Virus record (IMG/VR): IMGVR_UViG_3300035520_000885
Location: 50,128-114,127 of that record
Reading direction: 5' to 3' (one strand)
DNA: 64,000 nt
DNA from: a virus
Taxonomy: Duplodnaviria; Caudoviricetes
The number at the start of each line of letters is the position of its first letter. Position 1 is the first letter of the stretch. Of the stretch, positions 189 to 62,049 are shown in pieces. Both the position numbers and the translations under genes were made by a program. The notes under the pieces are model-generated. The model was not told the DNA's origin. It saw nothing but the letters and a program-made list of their open reading frames with translations, and did not search any database.

Positions 189-2789
189 TCATTTTACCAT
201 GATTCTGATATAGTTGGCTAGCCTATTATCTGCATCCGTATTATTTTTTGTATCAATAATATCTACTGGGTACATATTAAACATGTTATTGTGACTGATG
301 ACGAAGATTTGTTCTCCGTCTATCATATTCATCTGTTTCTCGAGTATCTGTAAGAACTTCTCTCGATTAGATGTATCCAAAGTAGAATCAATCTCATCTA
401 ACAACATGATGTTGTACTTGGAGATGGATTGATATATGAGGGCAAAAGAAAATGCTAAGGATATAAAACTTCTTTCTCCCTGGGATGCATAACAGACATC
501 TCCAATTTCTGTTCCTTTCGTAGTATAAGGAATCTTGAACTCATCAGCAGTGATATTGAAATTCTCTATATAGAGTTCATCATCATAGACAATTTCCAGC
601 AACTCATTTGTGATTTCCTGGATACTTTTTAGATATATCTGAATATAGAGAAGAGGAATTCCTTCCTTAGCAGATAAAGCATTCTTGACAAGTTCCATCT
701 CATCATATTTTGTATTATATGCTGAGAGGTCTTCATTAAACGATAAGTAAGACTTGATTCTATACTCAGTATCATTAAACTCTTTCAACGCTTTTTCATA
801 CTCATATTTCAATCGGTCGTACTGCTGGAGGAGGTCTTTCTTTTTTCGAAAAAAATCGGTTAATTCATCATAACTATCCTGGAGTTTCTCTACCTCCAGA
901 ACAAGTTTTTCTCTAGATTCTAATGCTTCAATAAATTCCTTATGGAATTCAATATCTTCAATGGTATCCTTTCTATCGGATTCCAGAGTCTCTATCTCTT
1001 CGTTGATCTTTGTGAGAGAATCGGCAGTTTTCTCTAATTCATCAGAGATATCTCCAATCTTATTAGAAAGATACTCAGAATTTCCAATAGATAGTTTCGT
1101 AAGTTTCAACTTCTCTTTCAGTCTATCCAATTCTGCTAAATCCGTTTGCTGCAAATCATATTCTGTGGCAATCGTTAATAGAGAATAGATAGCTTGCTTA
1201 TTGTAGATGGGTTTCATATCCACAATATTATCCATGAAAGTCTGAAGAATGAAATCTTTCTGAATATCTGTGGGAAGCTTCTCTAAAGTAGATTTGCAAT
1301 CTCTCAGATTCTTCAGAAGCCCCATGATAGTCTGATGAGACATTTTCACATAGGTGACGAATGCTTCATCCTCAATGACGACATCCGGTTCCTCTGTGAC
1401 CAAATCAAATAGAGTATTATAGAAATCCTTGATATCACAAGCATCAGTGCATTTTGTTTTAACAGGCCCGATTTTCTTAAGGATATACTGATACACAACT
1501 TCGGCAGCATTCTGAAATTTGCTTTTTTCAGACTTCTGCTTATTACTGGTCACATACTCAGAAATATCCGTATTGCTCAGAATATAACTAGCAGCTTTCT
1601 TGATGGGTTCTTTTCCAAATTCATACATGGTAAGAACCATCTCAGAGCACTTATCCAGCATGACGATTAAGTCTTCCAATTCTTCCTTGGATACTTTGTT
1701 ATCATACTTAGATAAAGAGCACTCTGTATCACGCTTCTGAATCTTTGCACGAAGCTCAGAAATCATATATTCAAGATTCTTAACGTCAGCAGATTCAGCT
1801 ATCTTGTCAAGTTCATCTTTAATCTCATTAGAATCACAGATGAGCTTATCGTATACATCAAGAAGTTCTTTTCTTTTCTCTCTACTATGAGCGATATCAG
1901 ATTCAATCTGTACTAGATTCTTCTCCAGTTCAGTAGATTCTTCTCTCATTTCTTCCAGAGATTTAGAATCTAGCTTTCCTTTCTGGACAAGTTTCTCCGC
2001 TTTCACACATTCTTTTTTCTTGATATCCAGGTTTTCCTTTACCTCAAGAATAGAATCGTACTTGGAAATCTCATACTCAATCACATCAAGTTGACTCTTC
2101 ATAGAGTCTAGAGCAGACTTCAATGTCTCAATCTGTTTCTGTCTCTCTTTTTGAGATTTCTTAGCCTCATCTATGTCTCCAATAGAAAGCTTTGTAATCT
2201 TATCTACAGTATGAGAGATGACAGATTTGACTTCTCTCATATCTGCAACGATTTTCTTATAGTATTTCAGATAGATATCTACTTCATCAAGAATCTTTCC
2301 CATGAAGGATTTTCTGTCCGTAGTCTTGAGGTCAATGAAGTTTGTTACATTACTCCCAAGCCTAGTAAGCTTCAGATAATCCATCTCAATTCCAAGTTCT
2401 TCATGGATAATATCCTTGAAGGACTTCACATTTCCATTCACATTCAACTCATTCCCGTTTTTCTCTATATAGGATTTTACGGTATGACTGTCCTTAGATG
2501 CAGTATAGAAATGCTTGATGACGTATTCGTCTCCATCATCTTCGATACGGATTTCTTTATATCCATCCTCCCCGCTTACGATAAGAGGATTTTCGCTTCT
2601 TACATCCAGATTACCATTTGTAGCAAACGGATGCATACAACTAAGAATACTGGTTTTTCCACTTCCATTTGGCCCAGTAATCAGTATAATCTTATTTTTA
2701 CATTTCGTGAGATCAATACTAATCTCATCGCTATGATACGCAGTTTTGATATTTGCGAAGTTTCTTAATAGGATATATGTAATTTTCAT
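189..2789 (-). CDS. sbcC: SbcC/Rad50-like SMC ATPase
   Basis: Walker A GPNGSGKT, long coiled coil, signature ASQGE, Walker B LLDEID, H-loop ISH. Confidence 0.9.
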   Translation of the reverse strand: MKITYILLRNFANIKTAYHSDEISIDLTKCKNKIILITGPNGSGKTSILSCMHPFATNGNLDVRSENPLIVSGEDGYKEIRIEDDGDEYVIKHFYTASKDSHTVKSYIEKNGNELNVNGNVKSFKDIIHEELGIEMDYLKLTRLGSNVTNFIDLKTTDRKSFMGKILDEVDIYLKYYKKIVADMREVKSVISHTVDKITKLSIGDIDEAKKSQKERQKQIETLKSALDSMKSQLDVIEYEISKYDSILEVKENLDIKKKECVKAEKLVQKGKLDSKSLEEMREESTELEKNLVQIESDIAHSREKRKELLDVYDKLICDSNEIKDELDKIAESADVKNLEYMISELRAKIQKRDTECSLSKYDNKVSKEELEDLIVMLDKCSEMVLTMYEFGKEPIKKAASYILSNTDISEYVTSNKQKSEKSKFQNAAEVVYQYILKKIGPVKTKCTDACDIKDFYNTLFDLVTEEPDVVIEDEAFVTYVKMSHQTIMGLLKNLRDCKSTLEKLPTDIQKDFILQTFMDNIVDMKPIYNKQAIYSLLTIATEYDLQQTDLAELDRLKEKLKLTKLSIGNSEYLSNKIGDISDELEKTADSLTKINEEIETLESDRKDTIEDIEFHKEFIEALESREKLVLEVEKLQDSYDELTDFFRKKKDLLQQYDRLKYEYEKALKEFNDTEYRIKSYLSFNEDLSAYNTKYDEMELVKNALSAKEGIPLLYIQIYLKSIQEITNELLEIVYDDELYIENFNITADEFKIPYTTKGTEIGDVCYASQGERSFISLAFSFALIYQSISKYNIMLLDEIDSTLDTSNREKFLQILEKQMNMIDGEQIFVISHNNMFNMYPVDIIDTKNNTDADNRLANYIRIMVK

Positions 2790-2865: not shown

Positions 2866-2877
2866 AACATAAGTTTA
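2866..2877 (+). promoter_or_regulatory. Late-type phage promoter AACA-N6-TA
   Basis: AACATAAGTTTA; the same motif precedes many genes in the window; no + strand ORF follows. Confidence 0.6.
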
Positions 2878-3160
2878 ATCATTCATCTATGATTTCCCAG
2901 GTGGGAGCACTATGTTTATGCTATCAGCATGCCTGTCATGCATAAACTGAGCAGGCTTCTTCGGTGTTGTAGAGCTTTTTTGCATTTGTTTCCTTCACAG
3001 AGATAGATTGCATCTCGTTCACGCGTCTATGGATAACTCCTCCTATATGATATGTTTGGGTGCACGTTACAATTTCTGCGGGGCATGCTGATCCGCTAGG
3101 GTAGCGGGGCCCTGGCAACCTGCTCAGTTTGACAGGAATCGCATCGAAAGATGCGTGTTA
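2878..3160 (+). ncRNA. Candidate structured (pseudoknotted) non-coding RNA
   Basis: Crossed helices 2923-2934/3081-3092 and 2944-2955/3119-3130, GAAA-capped hairpin near 3140-3155, promoter upstream and terminator downstream. Confidence 0.6.
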
Positions 3161-3163
3161 AAT

Positions 3164-3200
3164 AAAGAAGTGGATACAGTTGATTCTGTATCCACTTCTT
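3164..3200. terminator. Intrinsic terminator hairpin
   Basis: aagaagtggatacag...ctgtatccacttctt. Confidence 0.75.
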
Positions 3201-3210
3201 AAGACCCATT

Positions 3211-16034: not shown

Positions 16035-18113
16035 TTACCAGTTTTTATTCTTCTTTTTCTTCTCGACGCTCTTATGCATCTCAATGAGACGAGAAGTTGG
16101 AGTCGTCTTTCTGAAGAAAGAGTCGATATAAGATTGTCCATGTTTCTTCGTAACCAAGTCATCAGACATAAGCTGTTTCTTGATATTCTGAGAAGCAAGA
16201 CCAATCAGAGGAGATGCGTTAAACTCCAGAGCTTTCAGAATCGTATAAATCTGATAGTCGGGGACTTCATCTTCCGTAAAATCGGGACGACTGAAGTCCT
16301 CGTCAGGGTCATTGCGAAGCATACGATTGATAATCAGCTCACCAGAGAGTGCCATAGCTCCAATTCCAGACTCCAGAAGAAGCTCAGTGAAAGTCTGAGC
16401 CATCCAGTGATAAGTAACCTTCTCATCACTATCCTTCTTGGAAGTATTGAGAAGGTCCATCAGACGATACAGAGGACGAGTCAACTCATTATTCATGATG
16501 ACCAGTTCAAACAGCGCAGTATCTTCATCCATGTCCTTGAAACGGATATATCCACGACCCTTTTTCATCAGGTCGATACATTCATCAGTCATAAACATCT
16601 CACGCTCGTCCATAGTATGGATCTCAACGAGCTCCTTTGTGACCATATTGTAGACATAGAATTTACCACTGATGTAAGTATTGAACGAAGAATCGTCATC
16701 CAGCTCATCAGACTTCTGGATAGTATTCGGGTCAATCCAAACAGCCCAGTTATCGAGGTCTGTCACCTCGTTGTTATTGAGAATCGGATTGATTTCGCCA
16801 GCAGTCATAGAGAAGAACCGATAGAAATCAGGATTGAACTCAATTTTTTCAGAAATGGTAGTCAGAAGATGCTTTGTAGAAAGAACCATCTGGTTTACAA
16901 CCTTAGTGGTTTCTTCAGTTTCGAATCCAGAGACACCATCTGCGATATCCAAGTTCAAAAGAGAAGTAGTACCAAAGCATTTATGACAAACTTCATCTCC
17001 GCATGCACAAGTGATAGGAGAACGAAGATAAATCTTCTTTCCTACCAGCTTTCCTTTATCCCTCTTAGCATTGATGAGAGAGAGGTCGTCGTTCAGATTG
17101 AGCTTATAGTAACGACCATTGTACTTCTTGAGCATTTTCTCAGACTTGATTTCAATCTCAAGAAGATGCTTAGTATTGCAATCAGATACAGTCTTAGAAA
17201 GCCGAAGAGTTCTTGCCAGTAACAGGCAGATTTTTCCGAAATATCCGGCTTTCCCCATCACTTTTTTATTTGTGATTAGACTCTTTCTGGCGCCGAGCGC
17301 ATCAATATACATGGCACTGGGTTTATTCAAACCATTAACCATGGTGCTGCTATTGATAGGAACTGGAATTGTGACACCATTCAGGTCAGGTTTCAAGCCC
17401 TGGTTGATAGTGAACTCACTAAGCTGCTTGTGCTTAATACCAGTCCCGGAACGCAGAATTACACCGACTGCATTGTCCTTGATTCCTTTGAAGATTTCGA
17501 TTTCTTCATTCATGAGACCATTGAGCTCATGCTCAATCTCGGCCGGTTGCATTTCCAATGGGAAAGTTGTTTGCATGATTTGTTGCATTCTCGGATTTTC
17601 CTGATAAACTTTCAAAAAAGTCTCAGACGATACCGTCAGGCCCATAATCAATGCAAAGTCAATAGAGATTCTTCTCATATTGTAGAGGACTTCAGATACA
17701 GAGCGGTTTCGTACTGTGTTTCTGATACTATACTCTTCAAGGACCAGAATGACCTTGTCGTTGATATAGTCTGTGAAATTGGGAATATCATTTTCACAAT
17801 CTACAATAAAAGAAGAATCAAGGATTTTCGTTCCATATAAATTGATGAAGGGATACCATGCAAACACGTTCACTACGAAGTGACGCAGTTGTAAAGTATG
17901 GGTTTCTTCATCGGTCGCATAGAACTTGAATCGTACAGGATACTCTCTGCAAGCTTTATGCTCGAAGCATCCTTTAATGAGGGTATAAATTTTCTCCTGA
18001 AAATCTACATAGTCTTCTTCGCTCCTCATATAATCATTGATGATATAGAGAGGGCTCACGTACTTGCTCAATTCTTCAGGAGTACTAAATGCTTTTACAA
18101 CGTAATCTTTCAT
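16035..18113 (-). CDS. rpoC: Putative non-virion RNAP beta-prime C-terminal subunit
   Basis: GARKSLITNKKVMGKAGYFGK bridge helix, RSPITCACGDEVCHKCFG zinc site, QMVLSTKH trigger loop; early-type motif at ~18195-18205. Confidence 0.85.
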   Translation of the reverse strand: MKDYVVKAFSTPEELSKYVSPLYIINDYMRSEEDYVDFQEKIYTLIKGCFEHKACREYPVRFKFYATDEETHTLQLRHFVVNVFAWYPFINLYGTKILDSSFIVDCENDIPNFTDYINDKVILVLEEYSIRNTVRNRSVSEVLYNMRRISIDFALIMGLTVSSETFLKVYQENPRMQQIMQTTFPLEMQPAEIEHELNGLMNEEIEIFKGIKDNAVGVILRSGTGIKHKQLSEFTINQGLKPDLNGVTIPVPINSSTMVNGLNKPSAMYIDALGARKSLITNKKVMGKAGYFGKICLLLARTLRLSKTVSDCNTKHLLEIEIKSEKMLKKYNGRYYKLNLNDDLSLINAKRDKGKLVGKKIYLRSPITCACGDEVCHKCFGTTSLLNLDIADGVSGFETEETTKVVNQMVLSTKHLLTTISEKIEFNPDFYRFFSMTAGEINPILNNNEVTDLDNWAVWIDPNTIQKSDELDDDSSFNTYISGKFYVYNMVTKELVEIHTMDEREMFMTDECIDLMKKGRGYIRFKDMDEDTALFELVIMNNELTRPLYRLMDLLNTSKKDSDEKVTYHWMAQTFTELLLESGIGAMALSGELIINRMLRNDPDEDFSRPDFTEDEVPDYQIYTILKALEFNASPLIGLASQNIKKQLMSDDLVTKKHGQSYIDSFFRKTTPTSRLIEMHKSVEKKKKNKNW

Positions 18114-18283
18114 AACTAGCTCCTCCTCATTGCCCAAACATAGGGTTTGCTTAATTTAGATGTCCACAGGATTATTAATTTTGACTTCTGAGGTTATAAT
18201 ATATAGCTTACCCAAATTTTTAGGCCATCTTTTAAAATGGACAGACAATCTTTTAAAGTATACCTCAGAAAGGCGGTGAGAGA

Positions 18284-28974: not shown

Positions 28975-29400
28975 CGGACAATACAATTCATATCTCTATG
29001 AAGCCAGACTATATCTTCATTGTATTTCTACAATGCCTCCCGTTTCGGTTTATTACATCCGAAGATGCTCACCTACATTTCGCTCTATAATTGAGCCTAC
29101 TCGGTTCTACCTATTTTATAAGTAGCCTTTCCCTAGTCGTTGAACACACATCTCAATGAGATGCTTCGCTGCACCGATTGTCTCTACCTCTAATCTTTTT
29201 ACTATACCTTTGGAGTTACCCATTGCCATCAGATGTGTCACCACTCTGATTTAGTAATTAGAGTCTAGCGAGATGTCCCTGCAGTTAGAGAGGTTTTAAT
29301 TCTTCCAGAGGTGCCAAAAAGCTTACAGAAGTTAAAGAAATTAATGGACCTTTATTAAGCATAATTTCCTAAACCCAGGCAAACTCCTGGCGACAGGTTA
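28975..29400 (-). mobile_element. Group I intron, ORF-less (426 nt)
   Basis: P1 attcttU/Gaagaat with long L1 loop, GTTCAACGACTA, AAGATATAGTC, terminal G; restores KGPHSL|GG. Confidence 0.82.
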
Positions 29401-44479: not shown

Positions 44480-44549
44480 TGGATAAAGAGAGAAGAGGAG
44501 TGAAATACTCCTCTTCTCTTTTATAAATTTTATACGAGGTGATATATAC

Positions 44550-45866: not shown

Positions 45867-47078
45867 TTATTTCGTAGAAAGAAAATCCTGGACAACTGTC
45901 TGAATGATGTAGAGAAGAATGGGAGTGAAGAAATAAACTTCTTTACTTGCTTCCAGATTCAGAAGCTCTTCATTCAAATCAAGAGGAATATCATAAATTG
46001 TGATATCCTCTTTTCTTGCAAACTTCTGCATCAGTTCCACATATTTCGATTCTTGAGGAGCGTTATACTTAAAAGAAGAAATCATCTCCTGAGAGAATAA
46101 TGTGTCAGTTCCGGTCGTTGTGCCCAGAGGAATGTCTACCATCAGAATGGACGAATCATTCCATTTTGCAAAAGCAGAGTCTACCTTATCAGTACCAGAG
46201 AGGGTATAATAATAGAACTCTTTAATCGTAGAAATATCCCGTCTTTCGAAGAAACGATAGATGGATTTTTCATACTTAATCTTTCTCTTATTGTCCATGA
46301 ATCCCTCAGAGAGAATCATCGTATTGTAGCTACTCTTCTTATTGAGGAGTCGATGGGTATTGATGAAAACAGACTGAAGGGGGTCAAAGATTTTATATCC
46401 ACCCTGAGTGTCAGAATCTGCCATGAAGCAGTTATATCTCTTATTATAGAAAATGGAGATATAGGTTTTCACCATGTCATCATAGAGGTTATTCAGATTA
46501 TCAATCTGCTCTTTATACTCTTCCATGAGAAGACAGTTATTCTCAGTACCGATATTCTCTAATACACAACTATACTTCGTCTCGACTTGATTGTCGAGCA
46601 TCTCTTCACTTTCATTATCATGATACTCAAGTTTGAATCCAATCTGATAGTAATTATCTGGACGGATTGTATCATACTGAACTTCAGTGACTCTGAAAAT
46701 GAAGGAGCCTTCCTTCGGGTGCGTGATAACAAACAAGTCATTCTGGAGAGGCTTGATTGTATTTGGGAGAATCACTGCACTCGAAGAGAAGCTTGTATCA
46801 ATTCCTTGGTCTTCAGAGCCAATTGCCAATTGAACAGGCTCCAATCCATAGATAGGAAAATTGATAATCTTCTGGAATCGAATGGGGGAACTATCGGACA
46901 GAATAGATTCAACGTCTTTGAATCCACCATCCACGGTAGTCTCTAAGTTATTGATATGGTAATAGGTAACAAAAGACGGGCTTTTATCAAGAAAACGAGA
47001 AATCTGGGAATTTAATCTATCTTCATACTTGAAGATATTATCTTCCACAAATTTCTGTTCATCAAATAGAAATGCCAT
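45867..47078 (-). CDS. Hypothetical protein, probably virion structural (late gene)
   Basis: 403 aa, SD AAGGAGG, late promoter 47110-47121. Confidence 0.6.
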   Translation of the reverse strand: MAFLFDEQKFVEDNIFKYEDRLNSQISRFLDKSPSFVTYYHINNLETTVDGGFKDVESILSDSSPIRFQKIINFPIYGLEPVQLAIGSEDQGIDTSFSSSAVILPNTIKPLQNDLFVITHPKEGSFIFRVTEVQYDTIRPDNYYQIGFKLEYHDNESEEMLDNQVETKYSCVLENIGTENNCLLMEEYKEQIDNLNNLYDDMVKTYISIFYNKRYNCFMADSDTQGGYKIFDPLQSVFINTHRLLNKKSSYNTMILSEGFMDNKRKIKYEKSIYRFFERRDISTIKEFYYYTLSGTDKVDSAFAKWNDSSILMVDIPLGTTTGTDTLFSQEMISSFKYNAPQESKYVELMQKFARKEDITIYDIPLDLNEELLNLEASKEVYFFTPILLYIIQTVVQDFLSTK

Positions 47079-47193: not shown

Positions 47194-47889
47194 ATGGCAA
47201 ACTCTAAACGTTTCGATGACAGGCCATTGGTTGTCATCTATACAGACGGAGCGTGCAAAGGAAACCCCGATGGGCCAGGAGGATATGGGGCAGTCGTCAA
47301 ATATCTTGATGATGACGGCAAAGTCCTCCGTATTGATGAATTCACAGGTGCATTCAAATTCACAACAAATAATCGCATGGAGATTCTGGGTGTCGTTGTA
47401 GCAGTAGAATCTTTACAACAGCCATCCTGCATCACAATCATCTCTGATTCCAAATATGTCGTCCAGGCGTTAAGCTGTGGATGGATATGGAATTGGATGA
47501 AAAATGGATGGGTGACTTCTACTCAGACTCCTGTAAAAAATGTGGATTTGTGGCAGAGGCTTCTTGTCGCATTGAGGCCTCATCGTTGTGAATTCCAATG
47601 GGTAAAAGGGCATAATGGTCATCCCGAAAACGAACGGTGCGATTTTCTTGCCTCTGCGTCCGCAAAAGGGAAAGTATTTATAAAAGGAGATGATGGGAGA
47701 TGTATTCTGATAGATGAGAAGACTCAGCAGGAAGAGAAACATGATTATAGCTTCATGGTTCTAAATGCTGCAATGGAAGTCTTTGATTATCTGAAAGATA
47801 CTTTGGATGAAGAGAAGATAAAGGAGAAAGGAGGCACCCAGAAGATGATAGATGAAATTGCTATCATCATAGATGCTAAAATAAAATAA
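47194..47889 (+). CDS. rnhA: Ribonuclease HI with C-terminal extension
   Basis: IYTDGACKGNP, TTNNRME, SDSKYV, VKNVDLW, WVKGHNGHPENERCD. Confidence 0.93.
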   Translation: MANSKRFDDRPLVVIYTDGACKGNPDGPGGYGAVVKYLDDDGKVLRIDEFTGAFKFTTNNRMEILGVVVAVESLQQPSCITIISDSKYVVQALSCGWIWNWMKNGWVTSTQTPVKNVDLWQRLLVALRPHRCEFQWVKGHNGHPENERCDFLASASAKGKVFIKGDDGRCILIDEKTQQEEKHDYSFMVLNAAMEVFDYLKDTLDEEKIKEKGGTQKMIDEIAIIIDAKIK

Positions 47890-47936: not shown

Positions 47937-49057
47937 ATGGGTAAACAGCTTGTGCGCATGACTCGTCTGAACTGGGACATTGAGTTCTTACAGGATATCA
48001 TTAGCAATAATGGTTTCCTGATTACAGAACCTGCGACGTTCCAGCAAGACGACATGAAGCAAAAATCTCTATATGGTGCTAGGTCTACTTTGTATGGCAC
48101 TAGCTATGACGACGAAACAGCATTCATTGAACGATATCGCTGTCAGTGCGGTTCGTTTAAAGGAAAGGTCTTTGAGGGAGAGATTTGTCCTTTCTGTGGA
48201 AAACCTGTAGAATTTCGAGATGTGAATATCGAATTTACAGGTTGGATTTCCCTCGGGAGTCACTATATTGTCAATCCGCTCTATTACAATCGGCTTTGTA
48301 AGTTGATTGGTAAGACTACTTTTCCGGAGATTGTAAATGTGAAGACTGTCGTGGATACCAATGGTAACATGAGAGCGCTCACATATGAAGATCTGGATGA
48401 GAAGCCGAAGCATCCGTTCTTTGGAATCGGATTGGTGGAGTTCAGGAAGCGCTTTGAAGAAGTCCTGAAATGGTTCAAAGCAAAAAAGAAGGGCAAAGAA
48501 GAAGAGTTCGACCGAATGATTTCGGAGTCCTCTTCTGTTTTCTGCTCTCATATTCCTATCTACTCTACTCTTCTGAGACCTCAGAGTAGCACTTCGGATA
48601 CTTACTACTTCAACCCGATTGACAAACATGTGAATCCCCTCTTTACACTGTCAGAGAAACTCAAGAAAGCAGAGGAAATTGATGAGAGATTCATTCTGCA
48701 AAGAATCCAGTCTCGTGTCAATTCTCTCTGGGATATCAACTTCGATTTCCTGAATGGTAAGGAAGGTTTGATTCGAGGTCAACTCTTAGGAGGAAGCCTC
48801 AACTATACCTCCCGGAATGTTATCATTCCAAATCCTGGATTAAGGGATGATGAGGTGGACCTGAGCTACCACACTTTCTTGGAACTCTACAAGTTCAAAA
48901 TCATCGCATATCTCATGCAGATGGACAACATCTCGCTCGCTAAGGCTTATAACATTTGGGCCAAGGCATATAGATTCGACAATCGAATCTATGAGATTAT
49001 GCTTCTCATCATCAAGAACACGAAACCGTTAATCTTGATGAACCGTAATCCGACGCT
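47937..49057 (+). CDS. rpoC: Putative non-virion RNAP beta-prime N-terminal subunit, exon 1
   Basis: CQCG...ICPFCG zinc finger, GKEGLIRGQLLG, SRNVI, NRNPTL; spliced product 467 aa. Confidence 0.88.
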
Positions 49058-49457
49058 AAAATGTTTGGTGTCATTAAACCTATCTAATTGCGGGAAACTC
49101 GCTTAATCTATGATTACTAACTCATAGCAGTGATGTATATGAGGGCAATGGGCAATTCCAAAGACATAGTAAAAAGATCGTAGATGTGATAATCCGCAGC
49201 GAAGTATCAAGTTCGACTTGATATATGCTCAACGACTATGGAAAGCTAGACATCCAGATTGATAGAAATATCTAAATAGAGTTTTACTCTAGCTGGATTG
49301 AAAATAAGGTAGATTGAAATATCTACACGAAGCGAGTAGGTCCGACAGGGACGAAAGGTAGATGAGGATGGAAACATCCAACAGTCGAAATGATAGGCTT
49401 TTGTTATTATGGTAAAAGTGATAACAACTGAAGATATAGTCTGAAGTGAAAACTTTG
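49058..49457 (+). mobile_element. Group I intron, ORF-less (400 nt)
   Basis: P1 gacgcU/Ggtgtc, AATTGCGGGAA, AATCCGCAG, CAACGACTA, AAGATATAGTC, terminal G; restores NRNPTL-NYYSM. Confidence 0.88.
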
Positions 49458-49563: not shown

Positions 49564-50852
49564 CAACTCGAGGTCCGGGTGTGCAGTAATGTACATGAGG
49601 AATCACGTGAACGCTTAACAAGCGGTGTGAGCTATTGCAAAATAGCTTGCTAACGGTAGAAGTTAGATAAGGTACATCAGCAAATTGGTACACGAATACA
49701 CTTTCTAAGAGAGCCTACGGTCCAGCAATGGATAGCAGGTAATACCGTGCCAAGCTTCTTCAATCAAAAGCATATATTATACCGAAGTTATACTAAGGAG
49801 GTATATTATATGAAATTTACCAACAGCAAGCAAATCGATCTCTATGGTGAAAAGGTTAGTTGTATTTACATCGTAACCAACGAGGTTAATGGTAAAGTCT
49901 ATATAGGACAAACTGTCAATTTTCGTAACCGATTGAGCGATTACCAAAATATTCATCACAAAGACTCTAACTCCCAATCAATTAAGAAGGCCATCGTACT
50001 ATATGGCACTGATAACTTCACGATTGACATTCTTGAACTCTGCGACCCAGATGACTTAGATAACCGTGAAGCTCACTATATTGAGGAGTATCAATCCACG
50101 GATAGGAATTTTGGATATAACTACATGAAGCATACCTACCATTCTAACTCTGAAGAATCGAGGAAAGCAAAATCCATCGGTCATATGGGGTTGAAAGCTA
50201 GTAGGGCTACTAAGATGAAGAAATCCAATATGATTCTTGCCGTGAAAGATAATACTTTGATTAGTGCATATGGCGCTAAGTTCTTTGGGGATTATGTAGG
50301 TGCAGGGAAGGATCTTGTGAAGAACTGTCTTAGACAGCCTTGCAAACTTCATGGATACCGTCTCTATTATGATGATTTCTATAAGAGACAGGAAATCCGT
50401 AAGAAAGTGATGAATATGAAAAAGCGTAAAGATACTGAGTATCTTGATGTTTTGGACGCTATTGATATGATTGAAGTTGAAGGTCTAGAGACTATGGATC
50501 TGTATTTCGATAAAGTTTTCATCCTTGTAGAGGATGAGAATTCTGAATCGGGATTCAGACTTGACAACTATACAATCGAAGAAGAATTAGAAGATTATTC
50601 TGTGGACGAGTTCGATTATCCCATTATGGAAGAATCGGAAGAGGAACCGGTAGATATCTTCGATTATCTTTAATTGTAGTCAAGGTACTGGTTAGTTGGA
50701 GTGGCTAACTGGGAAGCGCGTGGCATCCTAATTATGAATACCTAAAATATATTCATAAAAGGATGAAGATATAGTCCGAATTACAAACCTAGTCAAAGTA
50801 GTTAAACCTAAAAGTTTGACTTACAAAAAATTTGATTAGATAAAGTATTCCG
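49564..50852 (+). mobile_element. Group I intron (1289 nt) with GIY-YIG endonuclease, inserted in the NADFDGD motif
   Basis: P1 cggaU/Gtccg, P10 ttcga/tcgag, AATACCGTG, TAGAGACTA, AAGATATAGTCC, terminal G. Confidence 0.88.
49810..50673 (+). CDS. Intron-encoded GIY-YIG homing endonuclease
   Basis: SD AAGGAGG; CIY...NGKVYIGQT..FRNR, E..YI, GYN. Confidence 0.88.
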   Translation: MKFTNSKQIDLYGEKVSCIYIVTNEVNGKVYIGQTVNFRNRLSDYQNIHHKDSNSQSIKKAIVLYGTDNFTIDILELCDPDDLDNREAHYIEEYQSTDRNFGYNYMKHTYHSNSEESRKAKSIGHMGLKASRATKMKKSNMILAVKDNTLISAYGAKFFGDYVGAGKDLVKNCLRQPCKLHGYRLYYDDFYKRQEIRKKVMNMKKRKDTEYLDVLDAIDMIEVEGLETMDLYFDKVFILVEDENSESGFRLDNYTIEEELEDYSVDEFDYPIMEESEEEPVDIFDYL

Positions 50853-51029: not shown

Positions 51030-51309
51030 TGGTATACTAAGTCACCTAGTAGATTCTTTGTGGGTCTACTAGGTAACTTTTTTATTCTCATATAGAAAAG
51101 ATTGATATTTTCTTCTAATTATACCAGATAGATTCCAACATTTAAACCTAGTAGACTTTGAATATCTGCTAGGTTTTATTTTATCCCTATAAGTGCTCAC
51201 GTGTATAGTTTCCATAGTATTTTACTTAAGTAGAATCATAAAGACGTTAATCATAAGAAAGAGCGTTTGCTCTAGTCTAAATATATTTTTTATAATGGGG
51301 GTTTTGATT

Positions 51310-56053: not shown

Positions 56054-59000
56054 TTATGAACGATAGATATCCTCAAGCTTTCTCTTCAATTCAACAATTA
56101 CTTTATTTCCAAGAACAGTAAGCATGATAGAGGGAACCTGGCGTTTAAGAATTGCACTCGGACTAATGATGGAAGAAATTTCCTCATTTGGTCTGAATTC
56201 AGAGTACGGTTCGTATCCTTCTGGAATTACTTCGCCAATGATACTCTTTAACGCAGTAAAATACGCAAGTTTATCACCGACACCCATGATATCGCCATGC
56301 TCAATGTAGAACTCGATAAGAACAGAGTCTTCGACCTTTTGCCCCTTGATGACACCATAGATATTTGGCTCAACTTTCCCAGTCGTCTCATTCAAGAGCA
56401 ACCCACACTTTACGATAGATTTGCTCTTATCGTACTTTGAAACGAAGTTATTCTTGTTGTTGACTCTGGCGTAGTAACTCTTCACAATCTTCTGAAGAGA
56501 TGGAGACAGTTCTCCTGTATCTACAGTGGAATAGATCTTAATATCTACAATATGCCCAGCATATTTAGATTTTACACTATTCATGCTAGTTTCCTCAAGT
56601 GTCTGTTTATTTTCGTCAGACAAATGAGCGAGTAATTTATTAAGATCCGTGTCATCGAAAGACGTGTCAAAGTCAATCAGCGAGTCTCCGATATTCACGG
56701 AATCTCCGACTTTTTTGATATTGTAGACATTCGAGTTTTTCCCAATGACTACGGACTTACAGAATGTCATATTAGCTGTCGCGTCCTTTGACAACTTATA
56801 TGTCACAGCAGTGGAGTCATTGTATGTGTCATACGAAGAAGCAATACATACTTTCTCAAGAACACCAACATTCATTCTAACTCCATTCACAGGGTCGTTT
56901 GTAAAAAAGTCTTTATGGTATGCGATCGGTTCATCTTTTTTGACCTTATCTCCAACTTTAAAGGTCGTCTCAAGTTGGTTATTAAGGAAGAATCCACCCC
57001 CACCATTTTTCACAACTTGAGGAGCAAGATTCACTGCTTGGTGCTTTCCATTCTTGTACTCAATCATCATGATTTTAGATTTGTCATCATAGTCAACAAC
57101 AACTCCATCATCTTCAGCATTGACCACAAAATCTGTGGAAAGATCAAATCTGATAGCCTCGTCAGCGCCGTTAGTAATTAACGCCGGTGAAGAGTTCTGT
57201 ACCGGAATCACATGGCCAGACTGACGTTTTGCCATTGCGGTACGAATGCTATCATCTCGAGTATTTCCAAGAGGATACAACAGCTCCGAAGCAGAGAAGA
57301 GATTCACATCCTTCAGGGATTCTTTGTCGTTCTCCTTAATATCAACATAACCTCTAGCGGTTGTGATATTTGGCTCTAACGTCAGGAATCTGTTAATTCC
57401 ACAATTTCCGTCAGGTGATGTAGACATCGCCTGGACGCCAATCATTGACGCATCATAAGAACGTTTCTCCTCCGTGTATGCTCTCTCCACGTTAATTCCT
57501 CTGAATCCCTTAGATGTAATTGCTCTGTCCTTTTCTAATTCTACTACTGGATTCAGTGTAGAATAATCTTCAACCGTCTGCAATTTAAGTAATTGCTTAA
57601 TAACGGCATCCTTAGGAATAGACAGTTTTTTCTTTCCAGCACTATTCTTGTATTGGATATATGCGGTACTGATTTCATCATAAAGAATGGCTGGAATAAT
57701 CTCTGTGGATCTGACACGAGAGAGCGTCTGACTATTTTCAATAGTATAAGATTCATCCGCAAGTAAACTACTTGCATAAATACAAAGCTCGACCAAATCA
57801 GTCGGAAGATTCGCGTCATTCAGAATCTCTTTTGTGATAGGGTCAATGGAGAAGTCATATGCATTGGATAATGCATTCACAATAGAGACCTTACCATATA
57901 CTTTCTTGAAATACGGTAAGTACGGCTCTGCACTATTATAGTCTTGCATATTGTAGTTCTCAGTATCGAGGACTCGAATTCCGTTCATCAGCAAACTTGT
58001 CGCCAAGTCTTCCTCATATACAAAGTAAGAATCTTTGAATCGAATCACAGATTCATTGGACTTCAAAGAGGATGGATACTTTGTAGAGAATCTATACTTC
58101 AGACCAATCTTTTTGAATACTGTGGAGATTCCTTCCCAGTACATCAGAAGCACAATAAACGGAATAGACTGACTCATGATAGTGACAGTGTCATACATGA
58201 GCTTCTTAGTAGACCGAGTCTTTCCGAAAGACTGCTGCATCTGCTGGGGGAGTTCTGTATAAATCAAATCACAGATACTGAGACCAGAATTCGTAAGCTG
58301 GGTATCTGCATCCAGGAAGATATTTTCTCCATTTACGTATCCAATGAAGATATGATTCTGAGGAATCTCAATATCATGAGCATCTGCGTAATCATTTGCA
58401 TACTTCTGGTTAAAGAAGATAGTGGCTCTCTCAGATTTAAACTGAGTAAGAACTTTTGCAAACTCATCATACTCAATCGTAGTGAGATAAGACTTATTTA
58501 CGGAGCTATTATTGCCCATAGTAAAATACTTGTAGCTCTCATTGGTACTGGCAATCAGTTTTGTCATTCTCTCAACCGCAGAGATAGACTTAGAACCAAT
58601 ACGACGGATAAACATCTTGTTGTAGTTGGTTACGATTTGCACAGTATCAGGGGCAGTTTTCACTACAGGATAAAGGAAGTTCTGTTTGTTGATAATCTTC
58701 TTGTTACCACCGAGATACATGAACTTATTATCCAAGAACTTAGGAATATCCACAGTGATGATGTGCTGTTTCTTCTGCTCATCAACCAGAGTGACTTTCC
58801 AGGTCTCTTTGTAATTCAACTCATTGGAAGTATCTTCAACAGCCACATTCTGAACGTAGAATTTAGAAGACTTCTCATTCAGGCAAGTAAACATATTCAT
58901 GATATCAGAAGGCATCACGTTCTCAATATAGTCTCTATTCATATTGGAGAACTTGACAGTCTTCATATTATCATTGATAGTATGTAGAGACTTGGACACG

Positions 59001-60373
59001 TCTTTCTTAGGAATCTCTTTCTTTGCAGCATTGATAGCAGAGAGTTCCTTAACCGTCATAGTTCCAACTTTCAACTCTTCCTGCTTTTTACGCATAGCCT
59101 CATCTCTAGCGGAACTAACAGGTTTCGTAGGAAGTTTCGTATCCTGCATGACCTGATACATCTTATTGATTAATTCCTTATCGGAATCAATATCCATCTC
59201 GACTTTCGTCTGAATAGCCTGAGTCATCTCAGGGGTCGTAATATCCTTATCAGGAACAATTTCAGACATTTCTTTACGACTCTTCTCGATGGATTCATCA
59301 ATTTTCTTCTCTACTGCTTTCTTAACTTCTTCCTGCTCGGCTTTCTTAACAGCCTCGGTCTTAGGAGGAGTCTTAGTGGTTGCAGTAGACTTTTTCTGCT
59401 GAGTTGTAGTAGATTTTTTTGGCTGAGGCTTTTTCTCCACATCGGTAGATTTAGCAACAGTCTTTTTCTCAGTACTCTTATTCAGAGTCTGGTCAGTAAT
59501 CTCTTCTTGTGCAGAGGTATCACCAGTCATATTGTACTTCTTGGAAAGACTTTCCTTGATAGTCTCCACCTGGTCGACTTTATCAAGTTCGTTCTCATTG
59601 ATTTCAGAGAATTTCGTCTTCTTAGCGAACAGCTTATTCAGCTCACGCTTAAATACGATATGGCTCTTCGCAGTACACTTAGAAGGATTCACCCTCAGTA
59701 CCATATTATTACAAAAAATAAGAAACTCAATGTCGAGGTCTTCGATATACTCGAATTTCTTATACATCGTATAATACAGCATGAAGAGGGGGTTATCAAT
59801 TGCGGTTTTCAGATTATTACTAAACCTATCATACTGGTCAGCATCAATTAAGACAATCTTATTTGGATAATCCTTGGTTAAATCAGAAAACCAAATGCTC
59901 TTAAAGTATACCCAGAAGAGTTGCATCTTCTTTTGGTAGCTATAAGAGGCAGTGAGAGATTTGAAAATCTCAAAATACTTACTCATCTCATAAAAAGTAT
60001 TCCGATTCGGAGTAGCGCTTAGCAAAGAAGGTGGATGAGGTCCAACCTTCGATTCTTTCGCAACTCTTGCGTATACCTCTTTACGAGTTTTCACATTCCG
60101 GATATAATACCGCTTCGCCCCAATCTTTCCCTTATAGTAAAGATTATAGTAGTAATAACGATATTTTCCATCCGGATAACAGTTTTTCGTGTTATTCATA
60201 ATCTTAATGGTGTTGGTCACATTTTCCGTGAAGGGGAAAATGATGTTACCAAAACCAAATCGTCTTGACATATCTGGAGTCGGCTCTTTATATAAAGATG
60301 CTTCATCTTTAGGAAGAGCTATCCGTTTCGGAGTGGCGACCATATACGGGATAACTGCCGGATAAATAGCCAT
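56054..60373 (-). CDS. rpoB: Putative virion RNAP beta (N-terminal and middle) subunit with long N-terminal extension
   Basis: IPKFLDNKFMYLGG, RAITSKG, STSPDGNCG, DDSIRTAM, TYNDS, VGDKLA...LKSII; late promoter 60401-60412. Confidence 0.85.
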   Translation of the reverse strand: MAIYPAVIPYMVATPKRIALPKDEASLYKEPTPDMSRRFGFGNIIFPFTENVTNTIKIMNNTKNCYPDGKYRYYYYNLYYKGKIGAKRYYIRNVKTRKEVYARVAKESKVGPHPPSLLSATPNRNTFYEMSKYFEIFKSLTASYSYQKKMQLFWVYFKSIWFSDLTKDYPNKIVLIDADQYDRFSNNLKTAIDNPLFMLYYTMYKKFEYIEDLDIEFLIFCNNMVLRVNPSKCTAKSHIVFKRELNKLFAKKTKFSEINENELDKVDQVETIKESLSKKYNMTGDTSAQEEITDQTLNKSTEKKTVAKSTDVEKKPQPKKSTTTQQKKSTATTKTPPKTEAVKKAEQEEVKKAVEKKIDESIEKSRKEMSEIVPDKDITTPEMTQAIQTKVEMDIDSDKELINKMYQVMQDTKLPTKPVSSARDEAMRKKQEELKVGTMTVKELSAINAAKKEIPKKDVSKSLHTINDNMKTVKFSNMNRDYIENVMPSDIMNMFTCLNEKSSKFYVQNVAVEDTSNELNYKETWKVTLVDEQKKQHIITVDIPKFLDNKFMYLGGNKKIINKQNFLYPVVKTAPDTVQIVTNYNKMFIRRIGSKSISAVERMTKLIASTNESYKYFTMGNNSSVNKSYLTTIEYDEFAKVLTQFKSERATIFFNQKYANDYADAHDIEIPQNHIFIGYVNGENIFLDADTQLTNSGLSICDLIYTELPQQMQQSFGKTRSTKKLMYDTVTIMSQSIPFIVLLMYWEGISTVFKKIGLKYRFSTKYPSSLKSNESVIRFKDSYFVYEEDLATSLLMNGIRVLDTENYNMQDYNSAEPYLPYFKKVYGKVSIVNALSNAYDFSIDPITKEILNDANLPTDLVELCIYASSLLADESYTIENSQTLSRVRSTEIIPAILYDEISTAYIQYKNSAGKKKLSIPKDAVIKQLLKLQTVEDYSTLNPVVELEKDRAITSKGFRGINVERAYTEEKRSYDASMIGVQAMSTSPDGNCGINRFLTLEPNITTARGYVDIKENDKESLKDVNLFSASELLYPLGNTRDDSIRTAMAKRQSGHVIPVQNSSPALITNGADEAIRFDLSTDFVVNAEDDGVVVDYDDKSKIMMIEYKNGKHQAVNLAPQVVKNGGGGFFLNNQLETTFKVGDKVKKDEPIAYHKDFFTNDPVNGVRMNVGVLEKVCIASSYDTYNDSTAVTYKLSKDATANMTFCKSVVIGKNSNVYNIKKVGDSVNIGDSLIDFDTSFDDTDLNKLLAHLSDENKQTLEETSMNSVKSKYAGHIVDIKIYSTVDTGELSPSLQKIVKSYYARVNNKNNFVSKYDKSKSIVKCGLLLNETTGKVEPNIYGVIKGQKVEDSVLIEFYIEHGDIMGVGDKLAYFTALKSIIGEVIPEGYEPYSEFRPNEEISSIISPSAILKRQVPSIMLTVLGNKVIVELKRKLEDIYRS

Positions 60374-60442
60374 TTCCTTCATCCTCCTTTATGAGTTCAT
60401 TAAAGGAATGTTTTTTGTAGGAAAATATACTGAAAAGGCGGC

Positions 60443-60520
60443 AAAAGAGAAGAGGACAATCCTCTTCTCTTTTTACCATATTTTTTAAGGAGTTAGTCAA
60501 GTTACTACTTTCTACCGTTT
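60443..60520 (-). ncRNA. Candidate anti-SD small RNA 1
   Basis: Promoter AACATAAGAGTA 60520-60531, ACUCCUU, terminator 60443-60473. Confidence 0.5.
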
Positions 60521-60564
60521 ACTCTTATGTTTGGTGATTATGAAAAAATATTCATAATGGGGGA

Positions 60565-60653
60565 AGAAATAGCAAGGAAATAAATCCCTTGCTATCTATC
60601 TTCCAAAGTTATATTTACGGAGGTGTCACATGAAGCCCAAGCAGCTACCGCTT
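60565..60653 (-). ncRNA. Candidate anti-SD small RNA 2
   Basis: Promoter AACAAATAAATA 60653-60664, UUCAU-N5-ACCUCC, terminator 60569-60595. Confidence 0.5.
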
Positions 60654-60677
60654 ATTTATTTGTTGTAAATTGGGGGC

Positions 60678-60790
60678 AAAGAAGCAGAGTCCGAAGAACT
60701 CTGCTTCTTTTATCCACAGGAGGGTTTTTATGAATTTTCAGCTTGTAAACTCGAAAAACTACCACAGAAGATCAATCAACCACTGACCTT
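60678..60790 (-). ncRNA. Candidate anti-SD small RNA 3
   Basis: Promoter AACATATTTTTA 60790-60801, UUCAUAAAAACCCUCCU, C(UUCG)G terminator 60678-60710. Confidence 0.5.
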
Positions 60791-60974
60791 AAAAATATGT
60801 TTTAGAAATTGTAGTGGATAATTTTTTATGAATCTGATCAATCTCATCTTTAGTCAATCTATTGATAGAAAGATAGAGATTATCAATATCAGTCATTGTT
60901 TCGCCACGATTCAATCTAACGATATACGCATTCACGTAAGTTTTCAATTTCATAGCGCTCAGAGTACTTGCCAT
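60789..60974 (-). CDS. Small hypothetical protein
   Basis: SD GGAGG, 61 aa. Confidence 0.65.
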   Translation of the reverse strand: MASTLSAMKLKTYVNAYIVRLNRGETMTDIDNLYLSINRLTKDEIDQIHKKLSTTISKTYF

Positions 60975-61071
60975 AAGGATTCCTCCAATCCAGAAAATTG
61001 CATTTAAAGTAATGTATCAATACAAAAAAAGAAGCTACCGAGAAATTCGGTAGCTTCTTTTTAAATACGTC

Positions 61072-61194
61072 TCACTTTCTAAGCTGGTCTATGACCAGTT
61101 TTACAATCATGACAGTGAGGCAGACCATTAGTATTCCGAGGCACCCGAAAAGAATTGCGAAGAACGACGTAGCCAATTTAGACATGATATCCAT
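61072..61194 (-). CDS. Small single-TM protein (40 aa), not in the ORF track
   Basis: SD GGAGG; MDIMSKLATSFFAILFGCLGILMVCLTVMIVKLVIDQLRK*; overlaps the 3' end of the upstream gene. Confidence 0.5.
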   Translation of the reverse strand: MDIMSKLATSFFAILFGCLGILMVCLTVMIVKLVIDQLRK

Positions 61195-61595
61195 TTTTCC
61201 TCCACCCCTTGGTATACGATATTTGCTCGTGCGACTTTCTCTAGTTCCAGTTTCTTTTCATCTGCTGGATTCCTCTTTATGGAGAATATAAATTCGACTC
61301 GTAAGTCATTTATTCCGAGAATATTGGCAACTTGGAATCCGCCAGTCTCTTCTACCAGCATGCCACAGTCTTTTTTCCTTACATCCCTGAAATACACCCA
61401 ATCCTCTGCACGAATTGTGGATGTGTACGTTGCATCGGATCTTGGATTCTTGTAAACGAAGCAGACAGGAAAACCAACAGAAGGGACACCAGCAACCGCT
61501 TCTTTAATTAGGCGTTCGGCATCATTTGGATTAGAGATTCCATGAAGTACTTGGTTGCTCATAGTTTTATCTCTCTTAATTCTAATATATTTCAT
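61128..61595 (-). CDS. Hypothetical protein, paralog of 61618-62049
   Basis: Shared RIKRD, GISNP, DCG.L.E, ILGIN.LRV.FIF. Confidence 0.7.
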   Translation of the reverse strand: MKYIRIKRDKTMSNQVLHGISNPNDAERLIKEAVAGVPSVGFPVCFVYKNPRSDATYTSTIRAEDWVYFRDVRKKDCGMLVEETGGFQVANILGINDLRVEFIFSIKRNPADEKKLELEKVARANIVYQGVEEKWISCLNWLRRSSQFFSGASEY

Positions 61596-61617
61596 TAGAT
61601 TCTTTCACCTCACCGAA

Positions 61618-62049
61618 TCAATAAGAACTTAAACAAGCCATCAATTCACCTTTACTTCCACAGAACATTATCCGGGCACCAAAAACTTTGTCCAATGCAT
61701 ATTTCTTACCATTCCCAGAATTTTCTTTTGTCAAGAATATGAATCCGACTCGTAAGTTATTTATACCAAGTATACTAACGATTTTTATTGCATTATTTTC
61801 CAAGAGCACTCCGCAGTCAGTATCAGTCACATCTTTGACAAATCCAAACTTTTCTGTGCGGACGACAGTCGCAACATCATACGTATCTGTATCTGAGGTC
61901 TCATATGCAAAGTGAATTGGAATTCCTGTATCCGGATGGCTCCTTATAGTGTCCCGAATGCAATTCTCTAAATATTCTGGATTGGAGATTCCAAAAAGAC
62001 TTGGATTTTCGTCTGCATTGTAATCCCTCTTAATTCTGACGAATTCCAT
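61618..62049 (-). CDS. Hypothetical protein, paralog of 61128-61595
   Basis: Same shared motifs as its neighbour. Confidence 0.7.
   Translation of the reverse strand: MEFVRIKRDYNADENPSLFGISNPEYLENCIRDTIRSHPDTGIPIHFAYETSDTDTYDVATVVRTEKFGFVKDVTDTDCGVLLENNAIKIVSILGINNLRVGFIFLTKENSGNGKKYALDKVFGARIMFCGSKGELMACLSSY

Follow-up and report, generated by a model that had tools for sequence, protein, structure and literature searches.

Three related promoter-to-hairpin units with anti-Shine-Dalgarno stretches upstream of the RNA polymerase beta gene of an AR9/PBS1-like jumbo phage

Introduction

What is encoded by a long non-coding spacer upstream of the RNA polymerase (RNAP) beta gene in a phage genome that is 91% coding? 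The window analysed here is the terminal stretch of 64,000 nucleotides of one contig (114,127 bp, 40% G+C), and it comes from an AR9/PBS1-like jumbo phage of the gut. A 406-nt spacer at 60383-60788, which is among the longest non-coding stretches, separates the RNAP beta gene from a 61-aa gene. An earlier note, made from the sequence of the window, had placed in this spacer a tandem array of three late small RNAs, each with an anti-Shine-Dalgarno (anti-SD) sequence and a terminator hairpin. The underlying observation is confirmed and lies beyond chance: the spacer consists of three related promoter-to-hairpin units on the minus strand, without a credible protein frame. Judged by the sequence features described below, it is somewhat probable that short minus-strand RNAs are made from the spacer. 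The most likely reading of the locus as a whole is that the units are three sibling late small RNA (sRNA) genes whose seeds are directed against translation initiation regions, and for the full chain from transcription to translational control this reading is put forward tentatively, with rather less than even confidence.

Locus and genome context

The spacer and the two genes that border it are as follows.

56054-60382, minus strand: 1442-aa gene for the jumbo-phage RNA polymerase beta subunit (PHROG E = 2e-164)
60383-60788: spacer of 406 nt, upstream of beta
60789-60974, minus strand: 61-aa gene with a match to phrog_28526

Identity of the beta protein to the counterparts in Listeria phage LPJP1, Staphylococcus jumbo phages and Bacillus PBS1/AR9 relatives is 31-36%, and the 61-aa protein gave no homologue by word search. 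Every gene from 54841 to the window end, including all genes within 9 kb of the spacer, lies on the minus strand. The beta start is probably ATG 60373 (MAIY...), which is kept in relative L001 and is spaced 9 nt from GGAGG, rather than the listed ATG 60382, which abuts GGAGG directly (region 60371-60393, minus strand). Strong GGAGG sites are used by the phage's own genes. A gut metatranscriptome run that contained the phage (7% of sampled words) yielded contigs only at 57184-57556 and 59837-59987, inside the beta gene.

Late promoter cores

In phage AR9 the motif AACA-N6-TA is the mapped late promoter of the non-virion RNA polymerase, defined by AACA at -11 to -8 and T-A/G at -1/+1, of which -11 to -8 and +1 are the only critical positions (PMC5312081, PMC5449584). 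The same motif is a real promoter class in the present phage and its relatives. Both strands of the 114-kb contig together hold 48 copies, with 21 of the 48 in the 9% of the DNA that is non-coding and 15 placed 1-52 nt upstream of a same-strand gene, and in relatives L002-L005 an AACA-N6-TA promoter is found 16-30 nt upstream of beta. The gene-proximal sites gave an extended consensus (A-rich at -14 to -12, T at -2/-3 before TA, A at +2, then T/G), and promoter cores were scored with a flank-only PWM, by which gene-proximal promoters mostly range from +4.8 to +10.9. Genome-wide depletion of the core motif was considered and rejected, with 48 copies observed vs 45 expected under a third-order Markov model. 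Because the core count equals this expectation, a lone orphan core is unremarkable, and the 6 orphan cores in non-coding DNA are about what composition predicts.

The minus-strand cores at the spacer are listed below in the direction of transcription.

P3, 60801-60790, minus strand: core overlapping the last codons and the stop of the 61-aa gene; predicted start A 60790
P2, 60664-60653, minus strand: match to the core only; predicted start A 60653
P1, 60531-60520, minus strand: match to the core only; predicted start A 60520
P-beta, 60401-60412, minus strand: late promoter of the RNAP beta gene, which closes the array and lies outside it

Cores at 60520-60531, 60653-60664 and 60790-60801, the last overlapping the 61-aa stop, had been reported in the earlier note, and these coordinates are borne out. 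Its assignment of all three as late promoters stands for the class, which is real, and for P3, which has a flank score of +6.2, inside the gene-proximal range, and fits the extended consensus in the form AAAACA-N4-TTTAA that is seen in relatives too. It stands less well for P2 and P1, the flanks of which (-2.2 and -5.3, respectively) score as do chance core matches inside genes. P-beta, at +10.9, is the best-scoring promoter in the contig. All three cores P1, P2 and P3 are exact to the AR9 late definition, and promoters with the core only, such as P1 and P2, are acceptable by AR9 standards. The P2 12-mer is identical to an AR9 late promoter with a mapped start at 203990, and P1 is similar to the strong g007 promoter of AR9. 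P1 and P2 both read AACA-N6-TAARCGGTAG, a combination unique to them within the 114-kb contig, and TAA[AG]CGGTAG itself has only 2 copies there, each directly after the P1 or P2 core.

A different, AT-rich motif (TATATTATA / ATATAATATA) recurs contig-wide in divergent spacers, for example upstream of the genes at 47194, 45867-47078, 18284 and 16035-18137. It is similar to the AR9 early promoter consensus, and with late and early motifs both present, both AR9 promoter classes seem conserved in this distant relative.

The three minus-strand units

Each of the cores P3, P2 and P1 opens a unit in which 45-80 nt are followed by an unpaired anti-SD stretch and then by a strong hairpin.

Unit 3, 60672-60790, minus strand: predicted RNA of ~115 nt with two small 5' hairpins, anti-AUG, anti-SD and hairpin 3
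Unit 2, 60553-60653, minus strand: predicted RNA of ~95-100 nt with 5' AAGCGGUAG in a 6-bp hairpin
Unit 1, 60432-60520, minus strand: predicted RNA of ~85 nt with 5' AAACGGUAG, then hairpin 1

No SD-led ORF was found on the minus strand of the units. The predicted fold of each RNA consists of a 5' part, a mostly unpaired middle with the anti-SD, and the hairpin, with z between -3.0 and -4.6. The anti-SD stretches claimed for all three units are indeed present, directly 5' of the hairpin, and are predicted to be mostly unpaired (probability 0.54-0.65). In unit 3 an anti-AUG (CAT) at 60732-60730 is followed by the anti-SD at 60724-60718, which has a predicted unpaired probability of 0.65; the fold of this unit, which doubles as the 3' UTR of the 61-aa gene, has z = -4.0. 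In unit 2 the anti-AUG at 60632-60630 is followed by the anti-SD at 60624-60619 and hairpin 2. The anti-SD of unit 1 at 60493-60487 (unpaired probability 0.59; fold z = -4.6) is without an anti-start codon. Units 2 and 3 accordingly share the form CAU-N6-CCUCC and unit 1 carries the anti-SD alone, in agreement with the earlier description of units 2 and 3 as reverse complements of GGAGG-N6-ATG and AGGAGG-N6-ATG.

The same note had seen a shared YGGUAG near the 5' end of every unit. This is true of units 1 and 2; the unit 3 copy is a generic hexamer (YGGTAG has 84 copies in the contig) that lies 35 nt further downstream. A modular guide with a constant handle, as had been suggested, is unsupported, the 5' motif being common to two units only. 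Against Rfam, with E allowed up to 10, the units gave nothing but hairpin matches at chance level, and no family reached the gathering score.

Hairpins and possible termination

The three hairpins are as follows.

Hairpin 1, 60443-60473: stem of 14 bp
Hairpin 2, 60569-60595: stem of 9 bp, extendable to 60562-60604
Hairpin 3, 60678-60710: 13-bp arms with a 7-nt loop

They had been described as terminators, and the strong stems of 9-14 bp agree with this, whereas the canonical U-tract is lacking. In a scan for canonical stem-plus-U-tract terminators hairpins 1-3 all failed, and the sole call of the consensus scan was the hairpin at 61026-61062. On the minus strand the stems are followed by 3-4 U and a C-run, and hairpin 2 is without a U-tract after its extended stem. 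Hairpins 1 and 3 are symmetric A-tract/U-tract hairpins with slightly better plus-strand tails; hairpin 3 is followed by UUUUAU when read on the plus strand, compared with UUUG and a C-run on the minus strand. The C(UUCG)G loop that had been noted in unit 3 exists as the sequence CUUCGG, which is out of register with the 13-bp stem, and the predicted fold is a UUC triloop. Several ordinary gene-end hairpins in the same genome are equally U-poor. Hairpin 3 sits 79 nt past the stop of the 61-aa gene, and most terminators in the genome are at most 16 nt from the stop. Given the weak U-tracts of hairpins 1-3, partial read-through into beta is possible.

If transcription passes hairpin 1, the resulting RNA contains the P-beta spacer sequence (UUCCUUUA, 60401-60420), for which pairing with the beta ribosome site is predicted. 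RNAs initiated at P-beta lack UUCCUUUA, and the site would be free only in these; such pairing could favour the translation of transcripts from P-beta alone. For the unit 1 anti-SD, the prediction gives no pairing in cis that would sequester the beta ribosome site.

One 14-nt arm (AAAAGAGAAGAGGA) is common to hairpin 1 (60443-60473) and to the plus-strand terminator at 44486-44522 that follows a 767-aa gene, a match that could reflect a shared origin or convergence of purine-rich terminator stems. The sequence CGGTAGCT in unit 2 was considered as a half-relic of the 61026-61062 hairpin and rejected, the 11/12 match being, by estimate, at chance level in a region of such size.

Relatedness of the units and choice of strand

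Units 1 and 2 align end to end, from the promoter to the C-run after the hairpin, with z = 4.4 (3/500 shuffles), and units 1 and 3 align over their 3' halves (anti-SD, hairpin and C-run) with z = 3.6 (4/500 shuffles); the alignment of unit 2 with unit 3 is not significant. The significant alignments of unit 1 with units 2 and 3 indicate that the units are diverged tandem siblings. Between units 1 and 2 the AACA and TA elements and the anti-SD are kept and the N6 spacer is identical at 2/6 positions, so that the divergence within the promoter mirrors what the polymerase reads. The stems of the units differ in sequence yet are perfect over 9-14 bp.

The segments of units 2 and 3 that mirror initiation regions correspond to short frames on the opposite strand.

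12-codon frame, 60630-60668, plus strand: GGAGG-N6-ATG, mirror of the unit 2 anti-initiation segment
18-codon frame, 60730-60786, plus strand: AGGAGG-N6-ATG, mirror of the unit 3 segment

Spurious GGAGG-N5-10-ATG sites with a short frame occur at ~8 per 228 kb of strand, or ~0.03 expected in the spacer vs 2 observed, and the initiation-site feature is therefore real on one strand or the other. The plus strand of unit 1 reads AAGGAG-N6-AAG, and with AAG in place of ATG this unit has no plus-strand start codon. The CTACCG common to units 1 and 2 falls in different plus-strand reading frames. No plus-strand promoter of the late or early phage class was found in the spacer, and a sigma-A-like match reaches just 3/6 + 5/6. 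Taken as a sequence pattern, the conservation between units 1 and 2 (core kept, stems perfect, ATG not kept) favours a predicted minus-strand RNA gene over plus-strand peptides.

Search for targets

Particular mRNAs had been proposed as targets of the variable segments. A blastn-short search of the contig matched these segments only to promoter or stem look-alikes and to a 12-nt AU-rich stretch. That the window holds no perfect target, as the earlier note had stated, is borne out; the lead it gave at the 15970 gene start amounts to a 12-nt AU-rich match with E = 2.3. In a duplex scan of 422 initiation regions the best partner of unit 2 was the start of the GIY-YIG endonuclease at 49810, with ~11 + 6 bp. 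When the anti-SD was kept and the flanks were shuffled (n = 60 for units 1 and 2), the best duplex of unit 2 was equalled by 3/60 controls and that of unit 1 by 12/60. A search of 185,579 bacterial or archaeal species genomes for the complements of units 2 and 3, 20 nt and 23 nt long, gave no exact match. With no target beyond the shuffled controls for units 1 and 2, the ideas of particular targets and of guides are without support. A generic affinity of the predicted RNAs for strong ribosome sites is possible, and since strong GGAGG sites are found on phage genes, a generic anti-SD RNA would strike the phage's own genes too.

Relatives

No match to the spacer was obtained by blastn in 50,697 phage records, and no near relative was found in the phage, IMG/VR or protein collections. 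Searches with the beta protein gave relatives at 43-56% identity only, with L002-L005 at 43% over the beta N-terminal region, and the upstream regions of the relatives are not syntenic with the locus. Relatives L002-L005 have a single P-beta promoter in a spacer of 75-312 nt, and that of L001 is ~70 nt long. None of the relatives found has the array, which is lineage-specific. The search for the promoter plus 5' motif that had been suggested was made in IMG/VR with AACA-N6-TAAGCGGTAG and the TAAACGGTAG form, and returned chance matches inside coding DNA, none of them followed by an anti-SD and hairpin. In relative L003 a reverse transcriptase gene (RVT_1) at 988-2271, plus strand, followed by three small genes, lies just upstream of beta.

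Comparison with known systems

Among the late starts of AR9 in Table S3 of Lavysh et al. 2017 (PMC5312081), 75478(-) and 115851(+) are filed as 'antisense', and the step height of 3757 at 75478(-) is the highest among the Table S3 rows listed. At both of these listed starts the AR9 sequence holds an ORF-less intergenic unit of ~70-90 nt, in which an unpaired UCCUCCU or CCCCUC is followed by a hairpin. As their 5' ends are mapped in these rows, transcription of such units by an AR9-type late polymerase has been observed, though not a function. These two AR9 units share their layout with the array units: a late promoter of the form AACA-N6-TA, an unpaired anti-SD rich in C and U, a hairpin, and the lack of a reading frame. 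They differ in being single and opposite to their neighbours, with the anti-SD at the extreme 5' end and no anti-AUG, whereas the array has three tandem siblings on the same strand as their neighbours and the anti-SD beside the hairpin; there is no sequence similarity between the two. The units at 75478 and 115851 are not described as sRNAs by the AR9 authors (PMC5312081).

The CiaR-dependent csRNAs of streptococci occur as several siblings per genome, are ~90-150 nt long and present both an anti-SD and an anti-start codon (CAU in 53/61) in the unpaired stretch that separates their stem-loops (PMC3091779). Units 2 and 3 resemble them as putative sibling sRNAs with anti-SD and anti-AUG in an unpaired stretch. 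In contrast to the phage-type promoters of the units, csRNAs are bacterial with a CiaR promoter, and their siblings are highly similar; unit 1 further lacks the anti-start codon, and the units have no Rfam match. In Listeria monocytogenes, LhrC1-5 is a multicopy sRNA with four copies at one locus, each with its own promoter, and CU-rich UCCC motifs in single-stranded stretches bind the Shine-Dalgarno and block translation (PMC4132741). The LhrC copies are nearly identical and host-encoded, with validated targets, whereas the array units are strongly diverged and phage-encoded. The genes lhrC1-4 are arranged in tandem. Other C-rich sRNAs grouped with LhrC as related systems are RsaE/RoxS, RNAIII and FsrA.

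Phages also encode short antisense RNAs that cover a ribosome-binding site, such as P22 sar and P1/P7 c4, each directed at a specific neighbouring gene to which its complementarity is full or designed; no partner of this kind was found at the array. In type I toxin-antitoxin systems a hydrophobic toxin peptide, roughly 20-60 aa in length, is expressed from its own promoter, and an antisense RNA overlaps its gene. The plus-strand frames depart from this description, being 12 and 18 codons long, the second hydrophilic, and without a plus-strand promoter.

Interpretation and alternatives

Under the sRNA reading, the phage polymerase would start at 60790, 60653 and 60520 late in infection and would stop at the hairpins, at least in part, to release RNAs of ~115, ~100 and ~85 nt. 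The unpaired middle of each RNA would present a copy of the ribosome's anti-Shine-Dalgarno, to which units 2 and 3 would add a CAU six bases upstream. With these elements in the unpaired middle the RNAs would be able to pair with translation initiation regions and may lower ribosome loading, as do Firmicutes anti-initiation-region sRNAs. Firing of P1 and P2, termination of the phage polymerase at the hairpins and action in trans on translation are the steps that we infer, and the RNAs may be aimed at strong ribosome sites in general, not at particular genes. A more elaborate form, in which an expandable late RNA set bears a 5' tag, AARCGGUAG, read by a phage protein and differing anti-initiation segments that shut off chosen host or early-phage messages, as guide-like silencing that evolves by tandem duplication, is very improbable.

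The main rival, an unlikely one, is that the architecture acts in cis only. The array would have arisen by tandem duplication of the terminator-plus-promoter segment between the 61-aa gene and beta, the hairpins would be stacked, partly leaky terminators and insulators for the upstream operon, and P1-P3 would be additional upstream starts that give beta long structured leaders, with no role in trans for the anti-SD stretches. The units are diverged tandem duplicates, the weak U-tracts make read-through plausible, and two starts per gene are frequent in AR9, where leaders reach 491 nt. It is also consistent with the pairing of the P-beta spacer with the beta ribosome site in read-through transcripts, and with the single promoter and short spacer that suffice in relatives. 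A simple duplication of the region 5' of beta would, however, bring in GGAGG and not its complement, and the occurrence of three anti-SD stretches, with CAU exactly 6 nt away in two of them, is set against ~0.03 expected by chance. Nor is the unit 1 anti-SD predicted to pair with the beta ribosome site, and P-beta is already the best promoter in the contig. It is rather improbable that the array is neutral debris, a decaying duplication of the spacer that now serves no function; this would fit the absence of the array from all relatives found and an orphan core count near expectation in non-coding DNA, but the siblings kept promoter core, anti-SD and perfect stems while the rest diverged, in a genome in which 91% of the DNA is coding.

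The remaining alternatives give the plus strand a part. It is improbable that the spacer holds micro-genes for 12-aa and 18-aa peptides with strong ribosome sites, each beside a bidirectional terminator. GGAGG-N6-ATG does occur twice against the chance expectation given above, and the 12-codon frame ends 10 nt before hairpin 3, where the UUUUAU tail beats that of the minus strand. Against such genes, the promoter searches gave neither phage class and only the poor sigma-A-like match, the 18-codon frame, which starts 20 nt past the strong hairpin 3, would run antisense into the convergent 61-aa gene with no intervening terminator, sibling unit 1 reads AAG rather than ATG, the motif shared by units 1 and 2 changes frame, and all neighbours are on the minus strand. 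The use of both strands, with plus-strand peptide messages controlled by overlapping minus-strand antisense RNAs in the style of P22 sar or a type I toxin-antitoxin pair, is very improbable. Complementarity between the minus-strand units and the plus-strand initiation regions is perfect, and the hairpins that they share are bidirectional, but the peptides of 12 and 18 aa, the second hydrophilic and basic, are unlike membrane-active type I toxins, a plus-strand promoter was not found, and unit 1 is without a start codon.

If the RNAs of the preferred sRNA reading are made, the late polymerase of AR9-like jumbo phages would itself produce small RNAs, and these would compete with ribosomes for access to start sites. 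If that reading is true, this would be a layer of control for which no description in the AR9-like phage group was found in the literature searched, and it would explain why the highest late 5'-end signal among the listed rows of AR9 Table S3 is an otherwise unexplained 'antisense' RNA. The tandem, diverging array would then show how such RNA genes multiply.

Other features of the contig

A further ORF-less late unit is present on the plus strand at 2866-3201, with an AACA-N6-TA core at 2866, ~300 nt of G+C-richer sequence with ACUCCUCCU near 3037-3045, and a 15-bp terminator hairpin at 3163-3202. The 60-aa minus-strand ORF called over 2866-3201 is probably spurious, a product of crude gene calling. 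Beyond the 61-aa gene, a strongly hydrophobic 40-aa frame on the minus strand (61072-61194) stops 10 nt before the 61026-61062 terminator and overlaps the end of a 155-aa gene; it has no Pfam match and is likely to be a small membrane protein gene. The 155-aa gene and a 143-aa gene (61128-62049, minus strand), for neither of which a Pfam or PHROG family was matched, resemble tandem paralogues, with a common ...RIKRD... start and a GINDLRV/GINNLRV block. Two group I introns were identified at the Rfam gathering score (49048-49302, plus strand, and 28986-29382, minus strand), and the GIY-YIG homing endonuclease gene at 49810-50673, plus strand (Pfam E = 3e-11), lies within the RNAP-gene region. 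Two plus-strand hairpins 100 nt apart, at 51044-51074 and 51144-51176, have a common arm, CCTAGTAGA, and are sited in a 519-nt stretch without a called gene.
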